Shown: piece by piece, positions 2,845-13,654 of the stretch
Layout: the number at the start of each line of letters is the position of its first letter
Position numbering within the stretch: position 1 is the stretch's first letter
IMG/VR virus record: IMGVR_UViG_2904150443_000004
Location: 64,001 to 128,000 of that record
Origin: a virus
Lineage: Duplodnaviria; Caudoviricetes
Length of the DNA: 64,000 bases
Direction: 5' to 3' (one strand)
The notes under the pieces: model-generated
What the model was told of the DNA's origin: nothing
What the model saw: only the letters and a program-made list of their open reading frames with translations
Database searches by the model: none
Made by a program: the position numbers and the translations under genes

Positions 2845-3030
2845 GTGAGATACAGAAGAAGATATCTTATTTCATGGACTTGTAATGGCAACAATGGAAG
2901 AGATCATTGGGTAATGGAGAGAAACGGAAAATTATCCGCTGCCGACATAAAGAGACTGGAAAAAGATCTATCTAATAAATGGGGTTTAAGTAGACCAGTG
3001 ATTATTACAAACTACATACAAATCAATTAA
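2845..3030 (+). CDS. hypothetical protein
   Basis: G-rich RBS, ORF. Confidence 0.55.
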   Translation: MRYRRRYLISWTCNGNNGRDHWVMERNGKLSAADIKRLEKDLSNKWGLSRPVIITNYIQIN

Positions 3031-3095
3031 AGATAAGATGAAACACGGATTTCATAACACTAATATTATAATTAAAAAAAAATGGAGATGTAGTA

Positions 3096-3653
3096 ATGGG
3101 AAACAACAACATAATAGATCAACAATCTCTATTAATAACAAACCCTGAAATCGTCGAGCATTGGGATTCGTCAAAAAATAAAGGCTGTACACCTGATGAT
3201 GTATTCTCCCATTCACGTAAAAGGATCTTCTGGATTTGCGAGGACGGTCATACTGCATTTGAACCAGTTCGGGTAAGGGTGAAGCGTGGTGGATGTGTAG
3301 AATGTATTAGAAAAGTTAAAAAAGAAATAGTCTCGCCACCCATAGAAATGAGAAATACATTCTATCATCTCCAAAAGAACAGTTCTATGAAACTTAAAGA
3401 TTTCTTCGATATACAGCACGTACCTGCCACTCCAATTGAGGCTTTAGTTTTTATAGAAGCTGGTTCAAATAGAATAAGAATATACAATGTTTTGAGACGA
3501 TATGATATAAGAACACTGGAAGAGCTTCTAGATTGTACTTTTGAAGAGATTTCACGTTTTAGGAATCTAGGGGAGAAAAGCCAGAAAGAATTATTTGAAA
3601 TCTTAAAAGAGTATTTAAATGAGGAAGATCCGGATTATCATCAACGAGTATGA
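3096..3653 (+). CDS. zinc-ribbon domain + RNA polymerase alpha-CTD-like domain fusion
   Basis: NPEIVEHWD..KN...WICEDGH...GCVEC zinc ribbon; RIYNVLRRYDIRTLEELL...FRNLGEKSQKEL alpha-CTD signature. Confidence 0.75.
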   Translation: MGNNNIIDQQSLLITNPEIVEHWDSSKNKGCTPDDVFSHSRKRIFWICEDGHTAFEPVRVRVKRGGCVECIRKVKKEIVSPPIEMRNTFYHLQKNSSMKLKDFFDIQHVPATPIEALVFIEAGSNRIRIYNVLRRYDIRTLEELLDCTFEEISRFRNLGEKSQKELFEILKEYLNEEDPDYHQRV

Positions 3654-3680: not shown

Positions 3681-4169
3681 ATGAGTGTTATTGCTTATTG
3701 CAGGGTTGGAACCAATGAACAGAGTTTAGATGGTATGAGAGAAAGACTTGAGTTGTTTGCACATGAGGAGAAATTGATTATCAAAGAATTATTTATTGAT
3801 AAAGGATATAGTTCAAATCAGGAACGTCCAGAATTCGCAAAAGTTAGGCAACTGCTTAATGATGGTGGAGCAACTCTAATTACGCTTAAGGCAAATCAAA
3901 TGTATCGGAACTTTTCAGAACTTCTAAAGTTACTGGATGAAACAAAGAATGCAGGTAGTAGAATTATTACTGCTGATGGTAGCATTGATACAGACAACGA
4001 GGTTAGCTACTTTATCGAAGCACTTAGGAATACAATTGCTGTAATAGAAAATGATCATGAAAGAAATAAAAAGCTTCTCAATGTCTTTAACAAGAGAAAG
4101 AAAGATTTGGAGATTGATGAAGCACAGACACAGACTCACAATATGAAAGACAGGGATTATATCGACTGA
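3681..4169 (+). CDS. resolvase/serine recombinase catalytic-domain protein, catalytic Ser replaced by Gly
   Basis: IAYCRVGTNEQ (canonical YxRVST), DKGYSS..ERPEF, SIDT; no DNA-binding domain. Confidence 0.75.
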   Translation: MSVIAYCRVGTNEQSLDGMRERLELFAHEEKLIIKELFIDKGYSSNQERPEFAKVRQLLNDGGATLITLKANQMYRNFSELLKLLDETKNAGSRIITADGSIDTDNEVSYFIEALRNTIAVIENDHERNKKLLNVFNKRKKDLEIDEAQTQTHNMKDRDYID

Positions 4170-4195
4170 TATTAATAAAGAGGAGAATGTTGTAA

Positions 4196-4603
4196 ATGAC
4201 GCAACTCAAAGATCTCTCTAAGAATGCTAGACAAACTTTAGCATACTATGTTGATGTATTAGTAAGAAAACAATTTAGTCTCGAATATCAAGAGCATAGC
4301 GAGAAAGACATAATGAAAGTTGTAGAGCGAGTTAAGGAGAACTACACACGACGCCGATTAGAAAAAGAAGCTTATGAAGAAATTTATAATGCATTGCAGA
4401 GTCAAGAGTTTATAAATGATCTTAAAATATACATCAGTAACTTTTTAAATAATAGACCTACTGTTGAAAGAATCACCTATTATCGTAGTCTCTGTCGACA
4501 ATACGGCTTAGGTATAGGAAGTAATATTAATAAAAAGACATTAGAATTGCGTATTGCTAGGATAATTGAAACTGGCGGTAAAGATCAGAATATTACTCGT
4601 TAA
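4196..4603 (+). CDS. hypothetical protein
   Basis: GAGGAG RBS, ORF. Confidence 0.7.
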   Translation: MTQLKDLSKNARQTLAYYVDVLVRKQFSLEYQEHSEKDIMKVVERVKENYTRRRLEKEAYEEIYNALQSQEFINDLKIYISNFLNNRPTVERITYYRSLCRQYGLGIGSNINKKTLELRIARIIETGGKDQNITR

Positions 4604-6260: not shown

Positions 6261-6317
6261 GCCAAACTACTACACAGTTTGAGTGCATAAAAATCGAAGT
6301 AATATTAAGAGGGGTGT

Positions 6318-8283: not shown

Positions 8284-8520
8284 TATTCGACTCTAGAAGT
8301 GCTAAAAAACAATTATCGACCTTTAACTACACATTATAAATGAATATATGAGCACACAGACATATATACGAGTCTACTATAATAGATTATAATGAAATTA
8401 TCTTTTTAAAATTCTTATACATATCTTACATTTGTTTTTTAATGTGAGTATGTATATTTTTTGTTTTTTGTGTTACACTTCATATTATTATGATATTTCG
8501 CTCTTAGAGGAGATGATAGA

Positions 8521-9858
8521 ATGAGTGGAAATGTACAAACGGTTGACCTGTACGAAGTGCTTCCAGATGTGCTTACTGAAGTGAATAAAAACAAAGAAAT
8601 GCAAAGAGATATTGAAGAGATACTTGCAACAAAACATAACATCGCAAGAGGAACATTTGCTGAAATTTTGATAAATAATGGTCGTTTCGACGAAATATTA
8701 AATAACATTGAACGTACAGTCGTTGTTAAAGTTGTGAATGAAATAACTAATGACAATAGAGTGAATCCAAGTAATTTTTACACAAAAACGGAGATCAATA
8801 AAGCAAATAAGTACAAAAGAACAAATGGTGGAGAAGTGTCACTTCCATATACTTTTGAGTCTGTACTGAAGACTTCAGATATTGATTATTTAACCGTTTT
8901 AAGTTACCAAGACATCGCAAAACTTTGGAACTACGGAATTCTAACTTACAATTTCCAATCTCAAAGATTATCCAAGAAAAAAATGAATTCAAAAAATAAA
9001 ATTGTTGAGAAGGCTGATGTTAATTTACGAAGCGTGAAAAACATTGTTAGATTGATGCAAGAGGGCAAATATAGTCCATCAACATTACTATTTAATGTAC
9101 TTGTCGATGGTAAAAGTTCTATTGAATACGAAGATGGAGAACTTACAGTTACCGAAGAAAGTACTATCAACTTAATTGATGGCATGCATCGCGTACAAGC
9201 TATTTTGAAGGTGATTGAAGAGAATCCTGATTTTGAAGGGTATATGAATGTTGATATAAAACATTACACCCTTGAGAAAGCTCAACAGCTCTTAGCCATA
9301 ACAAATATGGTAAACCGTTTTGATAAGACATTGATCAAAAATTATATGGCTGAATCGATTGGCGCGAAGATTACAAAAGATTTGATGACTATAGCTGAAC
9401 TCAAAAATAAAGTGTCTATTAAGACCACTTTAGACAAGAAGCTTAATTACTACACAAACTTTGCAATCTTGTCTGAAGCTATTGAATCTGTATTTGAGCC
9501 TGAAAATACTAAGGATCAGTTCGACTATGCCGATGTTCTTAAAAAGTTCTTCGGTTACATGATCCCCTCATATGAAGAGAAATTCAAAAATAAGAACGAG
9601 GAAATCAAAACAAGTTGGTTTACACATCACAACATGTTCGTAGGTTTTGTAGTGATTGCTAAGAAACTTTATGATAAATACGGAAAAGATTATCCAGTTG
9701 ATGAGATTGTAAGAATTATTGATGGAATAGACTTTTCGAAGAATGAAGATTCTGAACTGAATCAGATTTTGACAACACAAGGGAAAGTAAATAGTAATAA
9801 AGTTAAGAAGAATATTAGAGAGTTTTTTGATACGAAGGTAGACGAGCTGCTTTCATAA
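8521..9858 (+). CDS. DGQHR/DndB-like (ParB-like) protein, SPbeta YopQ-like
   Basis: LIDGMHRVQA motif, 445 aa, immediately upstream of the YopR-like gene. Confidence 0.75.
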   Translation: MSGNVQTVDLYEVLPDVLTEVNKNKEMQRDIEEILATKHNIARGTFAEILINNGRFDEILNNIERTVVVKVVNEITNDNRVNPSNFYTKTEINKANKYKRTNGGEVSLPYTFESVLKTSDIDYLTVLSYQDIAKLWNYGILTYNFQSQRLSKKKMNSKNKIVEKADVNLRSVKNIVRLMQEGKYSPSTLLFNVLVDGKSSIEYEDGELTVTEESTINLIDGMHRVQAILKVIEENPDFEGYMNVDIKHYTLEKAQQLLAITNMVNRFDKTLIKNYMAESIGAKITKDLMTIAELKNKVSIKTTLDKKLNYYTNFAILSEAIESVFEPENTKDQFDYADVLKKFFGYMIPSYEEKFKNKNEEIKTSWFTHHNMFVGFVVIAKKLYDKYGKDYPVDEIVRIIDGIDFSKNEDSELNQILTTQGKVNSNKVKKNIREFFDTKVDELLS

Positions 9859-9891
9859 GTAGCTCATAATCCTCTCAAGGAGGTATTTGTT

Positions 9892-10869
9892 TTGTCTAAT
9901 AAGATATATGAAGATAAATTGTTCAATGAAGATTTAAAATATGAGTTCATCAATCAATATGGATTTGGTACTCAAAAAGTTATTGTTCGCCTATTTAAGG
10001 TTTCTCAAGTAATGGAGTCTGATATGGGAAAGGATATATATGACTTCAATCGTGAGGAATTAAGAAAATTCTTTTTTTATCTTTTACCTAAGACTGAAGC
10101 TGCGAGTAATTCGAATGTCACTTGGATTCAGAAATATATTGAGTGGGCAATTGATGAAGGCTATAAGGAAGGGCTAAACCCTCTCGACATGGTCGATTCA
10201 ACTTGGAAGAAGCAGTTTGCTAATGCTAATCTGAAGCAGCTCTGGACTGACAAAGAGATAGATGAGATTGTTGACCCAACTAAACGTGCTAATTATCAAG
10301 ACGCTGCACTTGTTATGATGCTTTTCTCAGGGATTAAAGGCCAAGGGAACAGTGAAATACTTAGTCTTAGAGAAAAGGATATAAACTTTAAAACAAATGA
10401 AGTGCTATTACACGATGAAGATGGAAGCACAAGGACTACAATCGTAAGTGATAAATGTATTGAATTCATGCGTAAGGCATTAAATGAGACAGAATATGAA
10501 AAGATGAATGGCTTTGCTTCGCCAGATATCAAAGCTCCAACTGCGAAGTTGGTTGAAAATGAATATGTGATCAAGAGTGCAACAACACGCACTATTCACT
10601 TTGAAGAGGCAGATAAGTTCATTGTAAGTAGAAGGATCTCAAAAATTGCAGATGAATTAAATATGCCTACATTTACGCCTACTGCAATCTTTAGAAGTGG
10701 CATGCTCGCACTGGCTAAGGATGCTTACTTGCAGTCTGGTGAGTTAACTGATGACGCAGTAAAAGTGATTCAAGTGAAATTTGGTGGTAGTGGTGACACA
10801 ATCGATTATAGATTGAAGCAAGATTTATTAAATGCAGAACTTGTAAAAGAAGTTTATCAAATACCCTAG
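9892..10869 (+). CDS. tyrosine-recombinase-fold master repressor, SPbeta YopR/MrpR-like
   Basis: 325 aa; KDIYDFNREEL N-terminal domain; degenerate catalytic motifs (FSGIKG for GxR, AIFRSG for HxxR). Confidence 0.8.
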   Translation: MSNKIYEDKLFNEDLKYEFINQYGFGTQKVIVRLFKVSQVMESDMGKDIYDFNREELRKFFFYLLPKTEAASNSNVTWIQKYIEWAIDEGYKEGLNPLDMVDSTWKKQFANANLKQLWTDKEIDEIVDPTKRANYQDAALVMMLFSGIKGQGNSEILSLREKDINFKTNEVLLHDEDGSTRTTIVSDKCIEFMRKALNETEYEKMNGFASPDIKAPTAKLVENEYVIKSATTRTIHFEEADKFIVSRRISKIADELNMPTFTPTAIFRSGMLALAKDAYLQSGELTDDAVKVIQVKFGGSGDTIDYRLKQDLLNAELVKEVYQIP

Positions 10870-10891
10870 ATTATAATTCTAGGGTATTTTT
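10859..10891 (+). terminator. intrinsic terminator
   Basis: AAATACCCTAGA-N7-TCTAGGGTATTT followed by T-run. Confidence 0.8.
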
Positions 10892-10901
10892 ATTATTTTG
10901 C

Positions 10902-10931
10902 TTGACTATATGGAGATAAATATGGTAAATT
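10902..10931 (+). promoter_or_regulatory. sigmaA-like promoter of agr-like operon
   Basis: TTGACT-N18-TAAATT with TGn extension. Confidence 0.55.
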
Positions 10932-10959
10932 ATACTCATAAAGAAGAGGGGATAGAAGA

Positions 10960-11481
10960 GTGATAAGTAAATTAAGTAAAAAGTTAGCGAAATATTTGTT
11001 TAGTAATATTGATGAGAATGATATGACTAGATTTGCCAACAAGGGATATGATATAGTTGAACTAGAGAGCAGGTTAAAAGTATTATTTATATACATGTTT
11101 ATGATACCAATTATTATCATTGAAAGTGCATTTACGGGATTATGGATGGAGAATCTTATTTCACTAGTTATAGTTTTTGGATTAAGAGTTCTAAATAAAG
11201 GGCATCACTTTTCGCCTGATGTGTGTCTTATTGTTACAACTTCTATTATTGTATCTGTGCCTTTGATTAGTGAGTTTTTAAATAATGATTTATTAAAATT
11301 AAATATAGTAATAATAACAATTATATTATACATATTGTTTCCAGAACAGTTGAGTACTAAGAATTATCATAAGAAATTTATTTCAATAATATTGTGTGTT
11401 TTTGGTTATTACTTAATTGATTTACTTTTAGCTGCTCTGTTTATCTTATCATTTGATCAACTAAAACTAAAAAGAGGGTAG
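10960..11481 (+). CDS. agrB: AgrB-family peptide-processing membrane protease
   Basis: Multi-TM; amphipathic N-terminus; LRVLNKGHHFSPDVC matches the AgrB LR..GGxH....C catalytic His/Cys motif. Confidence 0.8.
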   Translation: MISKLSKKLAKYLFSNIDENDMTRFANKGYDIVELESRLKVLFIYMFMIPIIIIESAFTGLWMENLISLVIVFGLRVLNKGHHFSPDVCLIVTTSIIVSVPLISEFLNNDLLKLNIVIITIILYILFPEQLSTKNYHKKFISIILCVFGYYLIDLLLAALFILSFDQLKLKRG

Positions 11482-11490
11482 GGCATTTTA

Positions 11491-12153
11491 ATGCTAAATG
11501 ACTTTTTAGGGTATTCGCTATTTTCAACTTTAGAATATCTGGGTATATTCTATATGATATTTACGCTATTTAGCTTACATCCTTCTTATCACATTATTAA
11601 ATTAGTAACAATGTCATTAATAATATCAATATTGTCGTATATATGTGTAGTTTTTAAAATATACGACCTCATTCCAGCACCTTTGATAACAATACTTACA
11701 ATATCTATGATGATTCATTTTATAATAAGAAAAAAAGTTGTTTATAGTTTTGTTATCACTGGAGCTGGTGTAGCAATTGCGGCAGGTATACAACTAAGTA
11801 CCACAGGTTTGTTCCTTTTGAATAATTTTCTATCCATAGAGCAATTATCACATTCATTTGGTATTAAGACATATGTGATACAGTCAATAAATACATTCGC
11901 ATACTTCTCGATATCATTAATTTCACATCACACACATGGTCGCTTTGGTTACAGCTTTAGAAAAGGGAATGAATATAAGAAATTTGTTGTGCTTGCATTG
12001 TTACTAGTGGTAACTATATCAATATTTTTCATAGCGTTCTCATTTATTGACACAACTGAGTTGACATATTTATTTTTATTTATTGTAGTTGTATTATCAG
12101 CTATTATTTTCTTATACCTGTCTAATAAACAAGATGAGTATGAATTTAAATAA
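11491..12153 (+). CDS. 6-7 TM membrane protein, AgrC-sensor-like but without kinase domain
   Basis: 220 aa, almost entirely hydrophobic helices; ends about 10 aa after the last TM; lies between agrB and the peptide gene. Confidence 0.65.
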   Translation: MLNDFLGYSLFSTLEYLGIFYMIFTLFSLHPSYHIIKLVTMSLIISILSYICVVFKIYDLIPAPLITILTISMMIHFIIRKKVVYSFVITGAGVAIAAGIQLSTTGLFLLNNFLSIEQLSHSFGIKTYVIQSINTFAYFSISLISHHTHGRFGYSFRKGNEYKKFVVLALLLVVTISIFFIAFSFIDTTELTYLFLFIVVVLSAIIFLYLSNKQDEYEFK

Positions 12154-12187
12154 TATATAAGTTAACTAATTTGAGGAGGTGAATAAA

Positions 12188-12295
12188 ATGAAAAAGTCGA
12201 AAATGAATGTAGCAGGTGCATTGCTTGTGGCTGTGTTTGCACTTCCATCTGTAGTTGTTGGCAAGTTCTTCTTGTTCTGTGATACAAGCAAGTAA
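12188..12295 (+). CDS. AgrD-like propeptide (35 aa: MKKSKMNVAGALLVAVFALPSVVVGKFFLFCDTSK)
   Basis: Strong GAGGAGGTG RBS; basic-hydrophobic leader, aromatic core and short polar tail; in the agrB operon; missed by the ORF track. Confidence 0.7.
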   Translation: MKKSKMNVAGALLVAVFALPSVVVGKFFLFCDTSK

Positions 12296-12338
12296 TATCA
12301 AACATAAAGAGTTACATAAGAATTATACATAGTGAAAT

Positions 12339-12361
12339 GAGCGTATCTATTTGATACGCTC
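12339..12361 (+). terminator. hairpin between peptide gene and LytTR gene
   Basis: GAGCGTATC-TATTT-GATACGCTC, no strong U-tract. Confidence 0.5.
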
Positions 12362-12394
12362 TAAATACACCATCGCATCAACAATAATAAGGGG

Positions 12395-12895
12395 ATGGAT
12401 TATACTATGTTTCGAAAAATAATTGAAACCATTAAAAGAATGTCTGCAAATGAACTGATAAGTGTGTCTTCTGAAGTTGATACTGAATTATCTAAATTAG
12501 ATGGTGTAGTTAAAATTCCTGTGGGAGTAAATAAATTTACTGTCATTGAGGTAGACACCATAAACTACATAGTTTGCCCTAAAAATAAGGTGGCTATCAT
12601 TCATTTGAATGATGGAAAATCTATTGAATGCAAACTTTTATCGAATGAGCTTTGTGAATATTTAGAGTTTAATCATAATAACTTTAGAATGTTAGACAAC
12701 GGATTGTTGGTTAATATAGATAATATTATTGAATATGATTCATATATGCTGAAAATTTATTTTACAGAAGAGAAGTTCGCTGTTATAAACAAAAAAGCAA
12801 TGAAAAATATTGTTTCTAAATTAAATATTGAGGATATAACAAAATCTGCTGATCCCCAATTGGATTACTTAGTTAAGTTTGTAAAGAATTCTTAA
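12395..12895 (+). CDS. stand-alone LytTR DNA-binding domain protein (no receiver domain)
   Basis: IEVDTINYI...IIHLNDG...LCEYLE..NFRMLDNGLLVNIDNIIEYD LytTR pattern. Confidence 0.75.
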   Translation: MDYTMFRKIIETIKRMSANELISVSSEVDTELSKLDGVVKIPVGVNKFTVIEVDTINYIVCPKNKVAIIHLNDGKSIECKLLSNELCEYLEFNHNNFRMLDNGLLVNIDNIIEYDSYMLKIYFTEEKFAVINKKAMKNIVSKLNIEDITKSADPQLDYLVKFVKNS

Positions 12896-13005
12896 TACCA
12901 TGCCTGAAGCATTCTGTCAAGGATTTTGTTTTTTTGAAAAAAGTTGTTTAAAGATATTTATTAGGTTGATATAATTTTAATATCAATATTTAGTAAAAGG
13001 AGGAA

Positions 13006-13254
13006 TTGCCGATGACATCAATACAGGATGTGCTTTGGAGCAATTGGGAGACTAGTGTCCATCATTTTTTCTTGTGGATTAGAAATGTATGCGAGATAGA
13101 TGAGAATAGTGTAACTTATCAACAGTTACGTGAAATAATACATAGTGTTAATGACATCTCAGATTTTACAAACTTCTTTGATGGTGACATTGACAATATT
13201 TCTGATGCTGTTAGTGGACTTATTCGGTACAAAGAACTTTTTCGTATCGCGTAA
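13006..13254 (+). CDS. hypothetical protein
   Basis: AAGGAGG RBS, ORF. Confidence 0.65.
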   Translation: MPMTSIQDVLWSNWETSVHHFFLWIRNVCEIDENSVTYQQLREIIHSVNDISDFTNFFDGDIDNISDAVSGLIRYKELFRIA

Positions 13255-13320
13255 TCAAAATGGAGGAGGTTTGTCTAATGGTGAACTTTCTCCATTAAAA
13301 AAATAAAATATAAAAAACCA

Positions 13321-13350
13321 TTGACATTAGATAGTGTGATTTGATAAATT
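13321..13350 (+). promoter_or_regulatory. sigmaA-like promoter for tRNA/replication operon
   Basis: A-rich UP element, TTGACA-N18-TAAATT with TGn. Confidence 0.65.
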
Positions 13351-13411: not shown

Positions 13412-13486
13412 GGACTCATAGCTCAGTGGTAGAGCGTTCGGCTCATAACCGATTGGTCGTAAGTTCAAGTCTTACTGAGTCCACCA
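13412..13486 (+). tRNA. tRNA-Ile2 (anticodon CAT, lysidine type)
   Basis: Cloverleaf GGACTCA/TGAGTCC, anticodon loop CTCATAA, encoded CCA; resembles Bacillus tRNA-Ile2 rather than tRNA-Met. Confidence 0.85.
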
Positions 13487-13489
13487 TGT

Positions 13490-13561
13490 GTCTCTATGGC
13501 CAAGTGGAAAAGGCGCAGATCTCCTAAGTCTGTATCGATGGTTCGAATCCATCTAGGGGCG
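13490..13561 (+). tRNA. tRNA-Arg (anticodon CCT)
   Basis: Acceptor GTCTCTA/TAGGGGC, anticodon arm CAGAT-CTCCTAA-GTCTG, T arm GATGG-TTCGAAT-CCATC; no encoded CCA. Confidence 0.85.
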
Positions 13562-13654
13562 TTTGAAATCAACACTCATTAAGAGTGATTAAATAGATTG
13601 CTTTTTGTTTGTTGATTTAAAAATAAAATTATAAGGGAGATTGATGAAATTAGT

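Follow-up and report, generated by a model that had tools for sequence, protein, structure and literature searches.

The window analysed here, a stretch of 64,000 nucleotides that covers positions 64001-128000 of a provirus record of 146,367 bases (IMGVR_UViG_2904150443_000004), encodes four co-oriented plus-strand genes directly 3' of its yopQ-mrpR repressor unit (span 10960-12895, from the open reading frame (ORF) calls). Their products are an AgrB-type peptidase, a seven-helix membrane protein, a small precursor peptide and a DNA-binding protein of the LytTR type. With slightly more confidence than doubt, we regard these genes as an Agr-type cassette for peptide signalling that is complete in itself and dispenses with phosphotransfer, contact between the membrane receptor and the LytTR protein being its likely output. 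Far from being confined to this phage, the module is a system widespread in the Paenibacillaceae which phages have acquired, and it merges Agr quorum sensing with the logic of the LytTR regulatory systems.

The sequence-only reading of this stretch had named all four genes as well as the YopQ/YopR-like repressor genes, the terminator and the promoter in front of them. These identities are borne out by the ORFs, by Pfam matches to AgrB, DndB and MrpR, by AlphaFold2 models, by the AgrA fold of the LytTR protein and by the hairpin and promoter site listed in the table below. The AgrB protein matches Pfam AgrB with 30.6 bits against a cut-off of 23 and belongs to phrog_10353. Its motif GHHFSPDVC, with H and C seven residues apart, lies within the block R..[S/N]GG.H[F/L].....C, which is invariant in all 17 aligned AgrB proteins of the module family; the invariant His and Cys are presumably the counterparts of the catalytic residues H77/C84 of Staphylococcus aureus AgrB. 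Profile searches, proposed as a check, thus upheld AgrB and fell short for the LytTR protein, which scores 19 bits with Pfam LytTR, under the cut-off of 22.6. A six-frame Pfam LytTR search of the provirus gave no match at E<=0.01, and the assignment is therefore founded on the fold. The best Foldseek match of the AlphaFold2 model (predicted local distance difference test (pLDDT) 81) is the LytTR domain of S. aureus AgrA (4g4k; E 3.6e-6, template-modelling (TM) score by target 0.82), the second-best is ComE, and the feature neighbours of the protein in the ESM Atlas are LytTR clusters (0.88-0.89). In the model its N-terminal extension of ~30 residues forms two short helices and not a receiver.

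Canonical AgrC joins a sensor to DHp and HATPase_c_5 domains, and canonical AgrA joins a receiver to LytTR. In the cassette the sensor module is present and ends at residue 220, the kinase domains lacking, and the LytTR fold is present, the receiver lacking. Across its 146,367 bases the provirus gives no match to HATPase_c, HATPase_c_5 or Response_reg, in keeping with the earlier claim that both phosphorelay halves are cleanly absent. Since only the AgrC sensor and the AgrA DNA-binding domain remain, phosphotransfer is excluded.

The identification of the 220-residue protein as an AgrC-sensor-like receptor, already suspected from the sequence, is supported by its structural neighbours, by profile matches to AgrC-type kinases and by the co-variation of peptide and receptor. 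The protein has no family in Pfam, and NCBIfam matched none of the four cassette proteins. Its AlphaFold2 model, based on an alignment of 45 sequences (pLDDT 92.5, predicted TM score 0.89), consists of seven long helices, and the chain stops immediately behind helix 7. In the ESM Atlas its structure neighbours are the N-terminal halves of three clusters of HATPase_c_5 proteins (444-506 residues, TM score by query 0.71-0.80), together with a 207-residue cluster of unnamed Bacillota proteins. The structural comparison with the AgrC sensor therefore succeeded against kinase halves in the Atlas and failed against solved structures: Foldseek against PDB gave no match at E<=0.001, and a wide VIA-align search gave only helical-hairpin matches (residues 155-220, Z<=8.4), a range common for helical models.

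In a class-wide sample of Bacilli the family profile matched 29 of 301 genomes, with seven weaker matches in open frames of 418-471 residues. It aligned at full length to residues 1-212 of these seven proteins (413-463 residues, E 7e-18 to 1.5e-6). An agrB gene lies directly 3' of the long receptor relative in six of the seven (split in L119), the Ser12/Glu15 motif of transmembrane helix 1 is kept in six and Ser49 in five. Two of the long relatives (L122, L123) carry SPOB_a/HATPase_c_5 kinase halves. The remaining five have a C-terminal part of ~200 residues that Pfam does not name and that may represent a kinase half which has diverged far or degenerated, or a different output domain; a PDB sequence search with two long relatives gave no useful match for this domain. 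A 240-residue REC+LytTR regulator follows in two of these five (L120, L121), and in L117 the gene directly 5' of the long relative specifies a soluble HisKA+HATPase_c protein. An alignment of five kinase N-termini was dropped because it mixed unrelated sensor types.

The kinase-free module is related to a complete agrC-agrB-agrD-agrA operon of identical gene order, either as a sister architecture or as one derived from it. Homologues with full kinases had been named as a sign of decay, and distant loci do carry a kinase (L122) or a REC+LytTR regulator (L120, L121), but the short form is stable and very common. We regard it as a stable alternative and not as a product of decay, because it is widespread and intact. 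When the positive-inside rule is used to orient the model, the polar residues conserved in the family (S12, E15, S49, Y50, Y128 and Q131) would lie in the outward-facing halves of helices 1, 2 and 5, and a GGFGF-type loop (150-156) and a C-terminal K-x-D-x-x-E-F/Y tail would face the cytoplasm. Such a helix layout would agree with a ligand pocket on the outside and an output surface on the inside.

A HMMER search with the 220-residue protein against 1.84 billion representatives returned 47 relatives (E<=1e-3), all of 139-237 residues and none of kinase size. A profile built from 45 relatives matched 257 of 401 sampled genomes from the family that contains Paenibacillus pini (Paenibacillaceae), with up to six copies per genome; nearly all matches listed are stop-free open frames of about 207-281 residues, and two carry one in-frame TGA. 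Word-based homologue searches with the cassette proteins found only the query itself plus one relative each, and pattern-based locus searches, with the single membrane protein in the genome and viral collections and with MrpR in the genome collection, gave no confirmed relative.

Gene neighbourhoods were compared at 74 loci, namely the window, three loci from an earlier search, the 30 best of the 401-genome scan less two duplicates, two second copies and 40 picked matches, the latter all on long contigs; 15 of the best loci were fetched again with longer flanks. Genes were counted with hidden Markov models (HMMs) built from the module's own proteins, plus crude kinase and receiver HMMs. AgrB adjoins the receptor at 70 of the 74 loci, a LytTR-only protein lies in the fetched flank at 60 (directly downstream at 58), and an AgrD-like small ORF is found by pattern at 68, with two more recognised by eye (L104, L107). 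All four genes occur together at 51 loci, which, with the uniformly short relatives, bears out the earlier view that the cassette has not decayed. The kinase HMM matched at one locus, where a kinase-like ORF lies on the other strand 220 nucleotides from the module (L100), and the receiver HMM at none of the 74. Likewise, a Pfam scan of 142 ORFs within ~3.5 kb at 15 loci revealed neither kinase nor receiver next to the module; the sole receiver belongs to an unrelated REC-GGDEF protein 1.8 kb off (L049). In that scan AgrB scored 58-84 bits in 12 chromosomal-type loci and 34 bits in the prophage locus L038, and LytTR was above the Pfam cut-off in eight loci.

Two architectures can be told apart. 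The chromosomal form has the order receptor, agrB, agrD, LytTR (~125-150 residues), and its precursors are canonical AgrD peptides with a basic and hydrophobic leader, a Ser (sometimes Cys) plus four residues, and a tail such as HQ-E-E-T-P-EELLK. The phage form (type A) has the order agrB, receptor, peptide, LytTR, and its LytTR protein carries an extra helical N-terminus of ~30 residues. Type A comprises ten loci: six SPbeta-like prophages, the chromosomal locus L003, where LytTR is 2.3 kb away, and L039, L040 and L128. The phage cassette would derive from the four-gene module that is so common on chromosomes. At L085 a receptor-LytTR pair has a peptide gene and no AgrB, and at L086 the pair (receptor 2992-3615, LytTR 2566-2964, both on the minus strand) has neither AgrB nor a peptide gene. 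These loci resemble orphan listeners and therefore support receptor and LytTR as a functional unit.

Peptide and receptor vary together. Among 45 chromosomal-type loci with all four genes and a parseable core (three exocyclic and five ring residues), the distance between peptide cores follows that between receptors when LytTR is controlled for (partial rank rho 0.31, permutation p 0.001) and also when AgrB is controlled for (partial rho 0.22, p 0.001). With the receptor controlled for, the corresponding values are -0.02 (p 0.62) for LytTR and 0.14 (p 0.028) for AgrB. Co-variation of this kind, and synteny of the four-gene set in Paenibacillus prophages, had been named as checks in the sequence-only reading, and the cassette occupies the same slot in all six SPbeta-like prophages.

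The phage-type precursor differs from canonical AgrD in that it has no conserved Cys/Ser nucleophile and a tail of only 3-7 residues. The window peptide consists of a basic N-terminus, a hydrophobic stretch, LP, KFFLF and then CDTSK, and homologous small ORFs stand at the same position in nine further type-A loci. A K-x-x-x-F unit (Lys, three hydrophobic residues, Phe) is invariant in all ten peptides and is followed by 3-7 residues, five in the window as against ~11 in chromosomal AgrD tails. Directly after the invariant Phe stands Cys (five peptides), Leu (three) or a second Phe (two). The canonical arrangement of Cys/Ser plus four residues and an acidic Pro tail is absent from the window peptide, which has no Pro-containing tail; the chromosomal sister modules possess it, for example as S/C-x-x-x-x followed by HQ-x-E-x-P-EELLK. 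In related peptides of L103, L106 and phage Harrison the unit reads K-x-x-x-G, and the tail is longer and contains Pro. Because Cys follows the Phe in only five of ten cases, a Cys-based form of the cyclic peptide that the sequence-only reading had proposed does not hold as a general rule.

In the phage-type peptides Lys occupies the position of Ser/Cys in the canonical relatives, which suggests a Lys side-chain lactam or a linear product. As a hypothesis only, AgrB might cut after the Phe and the acyl-enzyme be captured by the side-chain amine of the Lys, a route that would fit a five-residue lactam; the alternative would be release of a linear signal ending in the pentapeptide. Homodetic cyclopeptides can arise from Cys-first autoinducing peptides (AIPs) by acyl shift (PMC8251862, PMC11297923), and Ser-derived lactone signals are known in staphylococci and enterococci (reference list of PMC12180512); a Lys-anchored ring does not feature in the abstracts of the AIP cyclopeptide literature surveyed. 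Processing of the phage-type peptide by AgrB is presumed, because the tail is atypical, the Cys is not conserved and three of the ten loci have no adjacent AgrB.

How might such a cassette work? AgrB would process the 35-residue precursor, the seven-helix protein would perceive the product outside the cell, and the availability of LytTR would most likely depend on direct contact with the receptor on its cytoplasmic side. In the LytTR regulatory system of Streptococcus mutans a membrane protein is described as holding the regulator inactive (PMC6193735). Peptide-gated sequestration or release of LytTR is favoured because this is the only described case of membrane control of a receiver-less LytTR regulator, and by that analogy we think it, on a fine balance, probable. 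Peptide secretion, binding of LytTR to the receptor, the direction of the signal and its targets are what we infer.

The cassette shares with canonical agrBDCA the His/Cys peptidase AgrB, an adjoining precursor gene, a polytopic protein homologous to the AgrC sensor, a LytTR output and the logic of a four-gene operon. It differs in gene order and in having neither DHp/HATPase domains on the sensor nor a receiver on the regulator, and hence no phosphorelay. Canonical agr systems are known in Staphylococcus, Listeria and Clostridium, with a Cys-type agr in Paenibacillus polymyxa; genome mining published in 2025 counted AgrB/AgrD genes across the Bacillota, and receptors are not treated in the portions of that study covered here (PMC12180512). 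The HdrRM and BrsRM systems of S. mutans, as portrayed in excerpts of PMC6193735, are akin to the cassette in combining a receiver-less LytTR regulator with a membrane protein and no kinase. They differ in that the regulator gene precedes the membrane gene, whereas the receptor precedes LytTR wherever both are adjacent among the 74 loci. Moreover, they have no AgrB/AgrD and no known signal, and their membrane proteins are of other families (DUF2154 in HdrM). They also have autoregulatory direct repeats ~10 bp upstream of the -35 element, a position that in the window is taken up by the mrpR terminator, which abuts the -35.

Phage-borne agr genes have precedents. The agr3 locus of phiCDHM1 has AgrB and AgrD like the cassette, but a full AgrC kinase and no regulator (PMC3901668, in part). 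In the same source, Hargreaves et al. (2014) remarked on three phages, Davies, Emery and Abouo, that have AgrB, a presumptive AgrD and membrane proteins in which they saw possible AgrC homologues without the ATPase; in the portions consulted, the LytTR gene, the chromosomal spread and the SPbeta-like version went unrecognised and no mechanism was proposed. Two phage-genomics papers merely table AgrB in the sections seen (PMC4168068, PMC5056774). The arbitrium system AimR/AimP/AimX is likewise a phage peptide system near yopQ-mrpR with a diversifying peptide-receptor pair, but, according to the parts of PMC10516654 used here, its receptor is a cytoplasmic tetratricopeptide-repeat protein and its signal a linear hexapeptide imported by Opp, as opposed to the membrane sensor, LytTR protein and proposed AgrB-processed peptide of the cassette. 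Arbitrium lies upstream of yopM-R, the cassette downstream of mrpR, where SPbeta has yopS. The literature searched holds no account of the LytTR partner, the four-gene kinase-free architecture, its spread or the SPbeta-type version; subscription journals and supplements lay outside the search, so that an earlier description is possible.

Several observations weigh against a self-contained, kinase-free circuit. The hhalign comparison of the family profile with two Paenibacillus HATPase_c_5 kinases is weak (E 0.0021 at 13% probability for one, E 0.34 for the other). Co-variation is supportive and not decisive, because Mantel permutations leave shared ancestry in. The census loci were drawn from the better-scoring third of ~450 matches, LytTR is not in the fetched flank at 14 of the 74, and L039, L040 and L128 (three of the ten type-A loci) have no adjacent AgrB. 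The window peptide does not end in a canonical AgrD tail, and the Cys that it has is shared by only some of its relatives. Upstream of the operons 13 of 74 loci have LytTR-type direct repeats, which is no enrichment over shuffled sequences (mean 7.8, maximum 13), and there is none around the three intergenic regions of the window either. Finally, autoinduction is not evident in the phage version, because the promoter abuts the mrpR terminator, and this promoter looks constitutive.

A constitutive promoter would also suit a device for host manipulation or eavesdropping, in which the receptor soaks up or reports foreign peptides and LytTR occupies host AgrA-type promoters, resulting in lysogenic conversion or interference with quorum sensing. 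Partners for cross-talk abound, given as many as six receptor-family copies in a Paenibacillaceae genome, and canonical HATPase_c_5 kinases with REC+LytTR partners are found in such genomes too; receptor-LytTR pairs without AgrB (L085, L086, L039, L040, L128) point the same way. Yet seven of the ten type-A loci keep an AgrB of their own and all ten their own peptide gene, the peptide co-varies with the linked receptor, and chromosomal modules of identical architecture reside in most sampled genomes, so that a self-contained circuit is simpler and the eavesdropping device unlikely. The lack of a Pfam family and of a match among solved structures leaves room for another role of the seven-helix protein, as a biosynthetic, export or immunity partner (for instance a leader protease or transporter), next to an ordinary, constitutive LytTR regulator. 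Its conserved intrahelical polar residues could serve catalysis or transport, and S. aureus needs a second membrane protease, MroQ. However, the same module is fused to histidine-kinase domains beside AgrB in L122 and L123, which is a sensor architecture, the Atlas neighbours are kinase sensor halves and the protein pairs with LytTR even where AgrB is missing; we give a non-receptor function little credence.

The odd anatomy of the peptide raises the question whether it leaves the cell at all. Its N-terminal two thirds resemble a signal or transmembrane segment, merely five residues follow KFFLF where canonical chromosomal tails have ~11, the ring-nucleophile position has no conserved Cys/Ser and AgrB is not always adjacent (three of ten type-A loci), as might be expected of a retained single-pass membrane peptide that modulates the seven-helix protein, with AgrB having another role or substrate. 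On the other hand, leader architecture and gene position are those of the canonical AgrD genes of the sister modules, intermediates with K-x-x-x-G and longer Pro tails exist (L103, L106, Harrison) and the AgrB catalytic motif is kept in every type-A cassette that has AgrB, which makes retention quite improbable. Equally hard to credit is a split system, phosphorylation-dependent after all, with an unlinked or host-encoded kinase or transducer. The soluble HisKA+HATPase_c protein directly 5' of the long relative in L117 and the kinase-like ORF 220 nucleotides from the module in L100 could be read in its favour; against it, the LytTR partner has no receiver to accept phosphate, and there is no kinase match in the flank of 73 of the 74 loci nor in the provirus.

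If the phosphotransfer-independent circuit is right, it would give the Agr family, a textbook case of two-component phosphorelay, a second transduction logic, present in about two thirds of the sampled Paenibacillaceae genomes. The LytTR regulatory systems, whose signals are unknown, would gain their first built-in ligand, and with Lys-x-x-x-Phe peptides the chemical range of AgrB products may widen. SPbeta-type phages would have a second, unrelated peptide-communication cassette, placed beside the master repressor and diversifying faster than its neighbours, and kin-counting by phages other than arbitrium carriers would become directly testable. The widest form of the argument is doubtful as a joint claim: that a kinase-less AgrC-type sensor gates a LytTR-only regulator by contact in the Paenibacillaceae and their phages, as an arbitrium counterpart for lysis-lysogeny or induction in SPbeta-like Paenibacillus prophages without arbitrium, and that the phage-type peptides are in addition a new chemical class of Agr signals.

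The phage setting is that of the SPbeta lysogeny region. A yopQ-like gene is followed by MrpR in the order of SPBc2 yopQ-yopR, the MrpR homologue being 28% identical to SPBc2 yopR (tblastn). Synteny of yopQ, mrpR and cassette extends over six SPbeta-like prophages: the window, L002 (P. pini), L004 (Paenibacillus sp.), L038 and the IMG/VR proviruses L126 and L127. That the gene set returns in this slot in five further SPbeta-like prophages, and at many loci besides, goes beyond chance. Among the four prophages compared, YopQ and MrpR are 34-60% identical as against 21-43% for AgrB, receptor and LytTR, from which it follows that the cassette has long resided in this slot and changes more quickly than the genes around it, in the manner of pherotype cassettes. 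In SPBc2 the place behind the yopR terminator is taken by yopS, a helix-turn-helix regulator, and the arbitrium genes yopK/yopL lie ~2.4 kb 5' of yopQ. Brevibacillus phage Sundance has two different small genes in this slot, of which one bears the annotation of a transcriptional regulator, and the window and its five relatives have the cassette, followed there by a small acidic protein, tRNAs, an SSB-like and an AAA_24 (Sak4-like) gene. The regulatory slot that the cassette holds in SPbeta-like prophages, with mrpR on one side and the early replication genes on the other, is a variable one, and lysogens or infecting phages would probably read kin density through the cassette.

The evidence that it may take part in the lysis-lysogeny decision is one of gene position: it is found in the lysogeny-control region of three phage types. 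No AimR was detected in the provirus with SPbeta AimR as query (E<=1), by Pfam on 23 ORFs or by PHROGs on seven unexplained ORFs (250-460 residues), although AimR is divergent and distant forms could escape such searches. The MrpR homologue of the P. pini prophage comes as two overlapping 164-residue ORFs (L002:3361-3855 and 3839-4333); this master repressor may be broken beside an intact cassette, because of a frameshift, unless the split is a sequencing error.

Related cassettes also occur in small, isolated temperate phages. A chromosomal-type AgrB query matches Abouo, Davies and Emery of Brevibacillus and Harrison and Paisley of Paenibacillus larvae, and in Abouo and Harrison receptor, AgrB, a 42-residue peptide and a LytTR-like protein of 118-122 residues lie beside an integrase or serine recombinase. 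Searches of 50,697 phage records by blastn with positions 8500-13300 and by tblastn with the window's AgrB and membrane protein gave no match. The LytTR genes of Harrison and Abouo are named otherwise: HARRISON_41 (L109:4148-4504), annotated as 'dipeptidyl aminopeptidase/acylaminoacyl-peptidase', matches the module LytTR profile with E 2.5e-8, and Abouo gp47 (L108:4151-4519), annotated as hypothetical, with E 4.5e-10. The best PHROG of the window LytTR, PHROG 15081, is labelled 'peptidase', which looks like a propagated misannotation. LytTR ORFs of 164-169 residues without a Pfam receiver also lie beside two Paenibacillus HATPase_c_5 kinases (L056:2780-3289 on the minus strand, L057:51-545); either their starts are miscalled or receiver-less LytTR proteins pair with full kinases as well.

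Table. Features of the cassette and its surroundings (window positions) and long relatives of the receptor (locus positions)
Feature	Position	Strand	Basis and remarks
YopQ-like (DndB/DGQHR family) gene	8521..9858	+	Pfam DndB 57.3 bits; first of the conserved pair before the cassette
MrpR (YopR) homologue, SPbeta-type master repressor	9892..10869	+	Pfam MrpR_N_CB 89.3 bits, MrpR_C_cat 71.5 bits
Terminator-like hairpin ending the yopQ-mrpR unit	10859..10889	+	12-pair stem, then T-run TTATTATTTT
Sigma-A-like cassette promoter, TTGACT, TG-extended -10	10902..10931	+	Consensus scan 9/12 plus TG
AgrB-type membrane cysteine peptidase, 173 residues, GTG start	10960..11481	+	Pfam AgrB, His/Cys motif
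Seven-helix membrane protein, 220 residues, proposed peptide receptor	11491..12153	+	AlphaFold2 model, AgrC-sensor homology
Precursor peptide, 35 residues	12188..12295	+	Ribosome-binding site GAGGAGG at 12173-12179, ATG 8 nucleotides after
Hairpin 3' of the peptide gene	12339..12361	+	9-bp stem, 5-nucleotide loop, no T-run; read from sequence
LytTR-only DNA-binding protein, 162 residues	12407..12895	+	AgrA LytTR fold, Pfam below cut-off
Acidic protein after the cassette, 82 residues, first gene of next unit	13006..13254	+	ORF; precedes tRNAs, SSB-like and AAA_24 genes
Long receptor relative, unnamed C-terminus (413-450 residues)	L117:3288-4553
Long receptor relative, unnamed C-terminus (413-450 residues)	L118:3233-4474
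Long receptor relative, unnamed C-terminus (413-450 residues)	L119:3234-4499	-
Long receptor relative, unnamed C-terminus (413-450 residues)	L120:2895-4145	-
Long receptor relative, unnamed C-terminus (413-450 residues)	L121:2746-4098	-

The signals around the four genes recur in part among the relatives. The promoter form TTGACT-17-TGnTAnATT is also seen by eye 5' of agrB in the prophage loci L002, L004 and L038; in the window there is no space for upstream LytTR boxes, because the promoter begins directly after the mrpR terminator. The hairpin 3' of the peptide gene is possibly a partial terminator or an mRNA-stabilising element, and in the same three loci a hairpin of other sequence stands at the same position (by eye). 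An alternative LytTR start at 12395 would yield 166 residues and has its ATG too near the ribosome-binding site; the recorded gene call is the 162-residue form. No RNA data sets are listed for positions 10900-12900 of the window.

Downstream of LytTR, a AATTCGAC(A) word occurs in two to three copies in L004 (6476-6581) and once in L038 (minus strand, near 6312), is missing at the corresponding position in the window and may be a repressor or LytTR site in these two prophages. The window has there (12947-12986) a promoter-like site (12947-12975) made up of TTTAAA, 17 nucleotides and a TG-extended TATAAT; a perfect inverted repeat with 7-bp arms and a 7-nucleotide spacer (12966-12986) overlaps it. 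This repeat is single-copy in the window (two matches at <=2 mismatches against 1.95 expected) and is a candidate operator of the early unit. A further promoter is placed at 13321-13350. The 82-residue acidic protein that follows has no family in Pfam or PHROGs and could be either a member of the cassette or the first early gene; small acidic ORFs of 68-82 residues with the motif W..WE.SVE..F..W are also present 3' of LytTR in L002 (6548-6754) and L004 (6625-6861). Between the cassette and the SSB-like gene the phage carries a tRNA-Met (CAT, 13412-13486) and a tRNA-Arg (CCT, 13489-13562).

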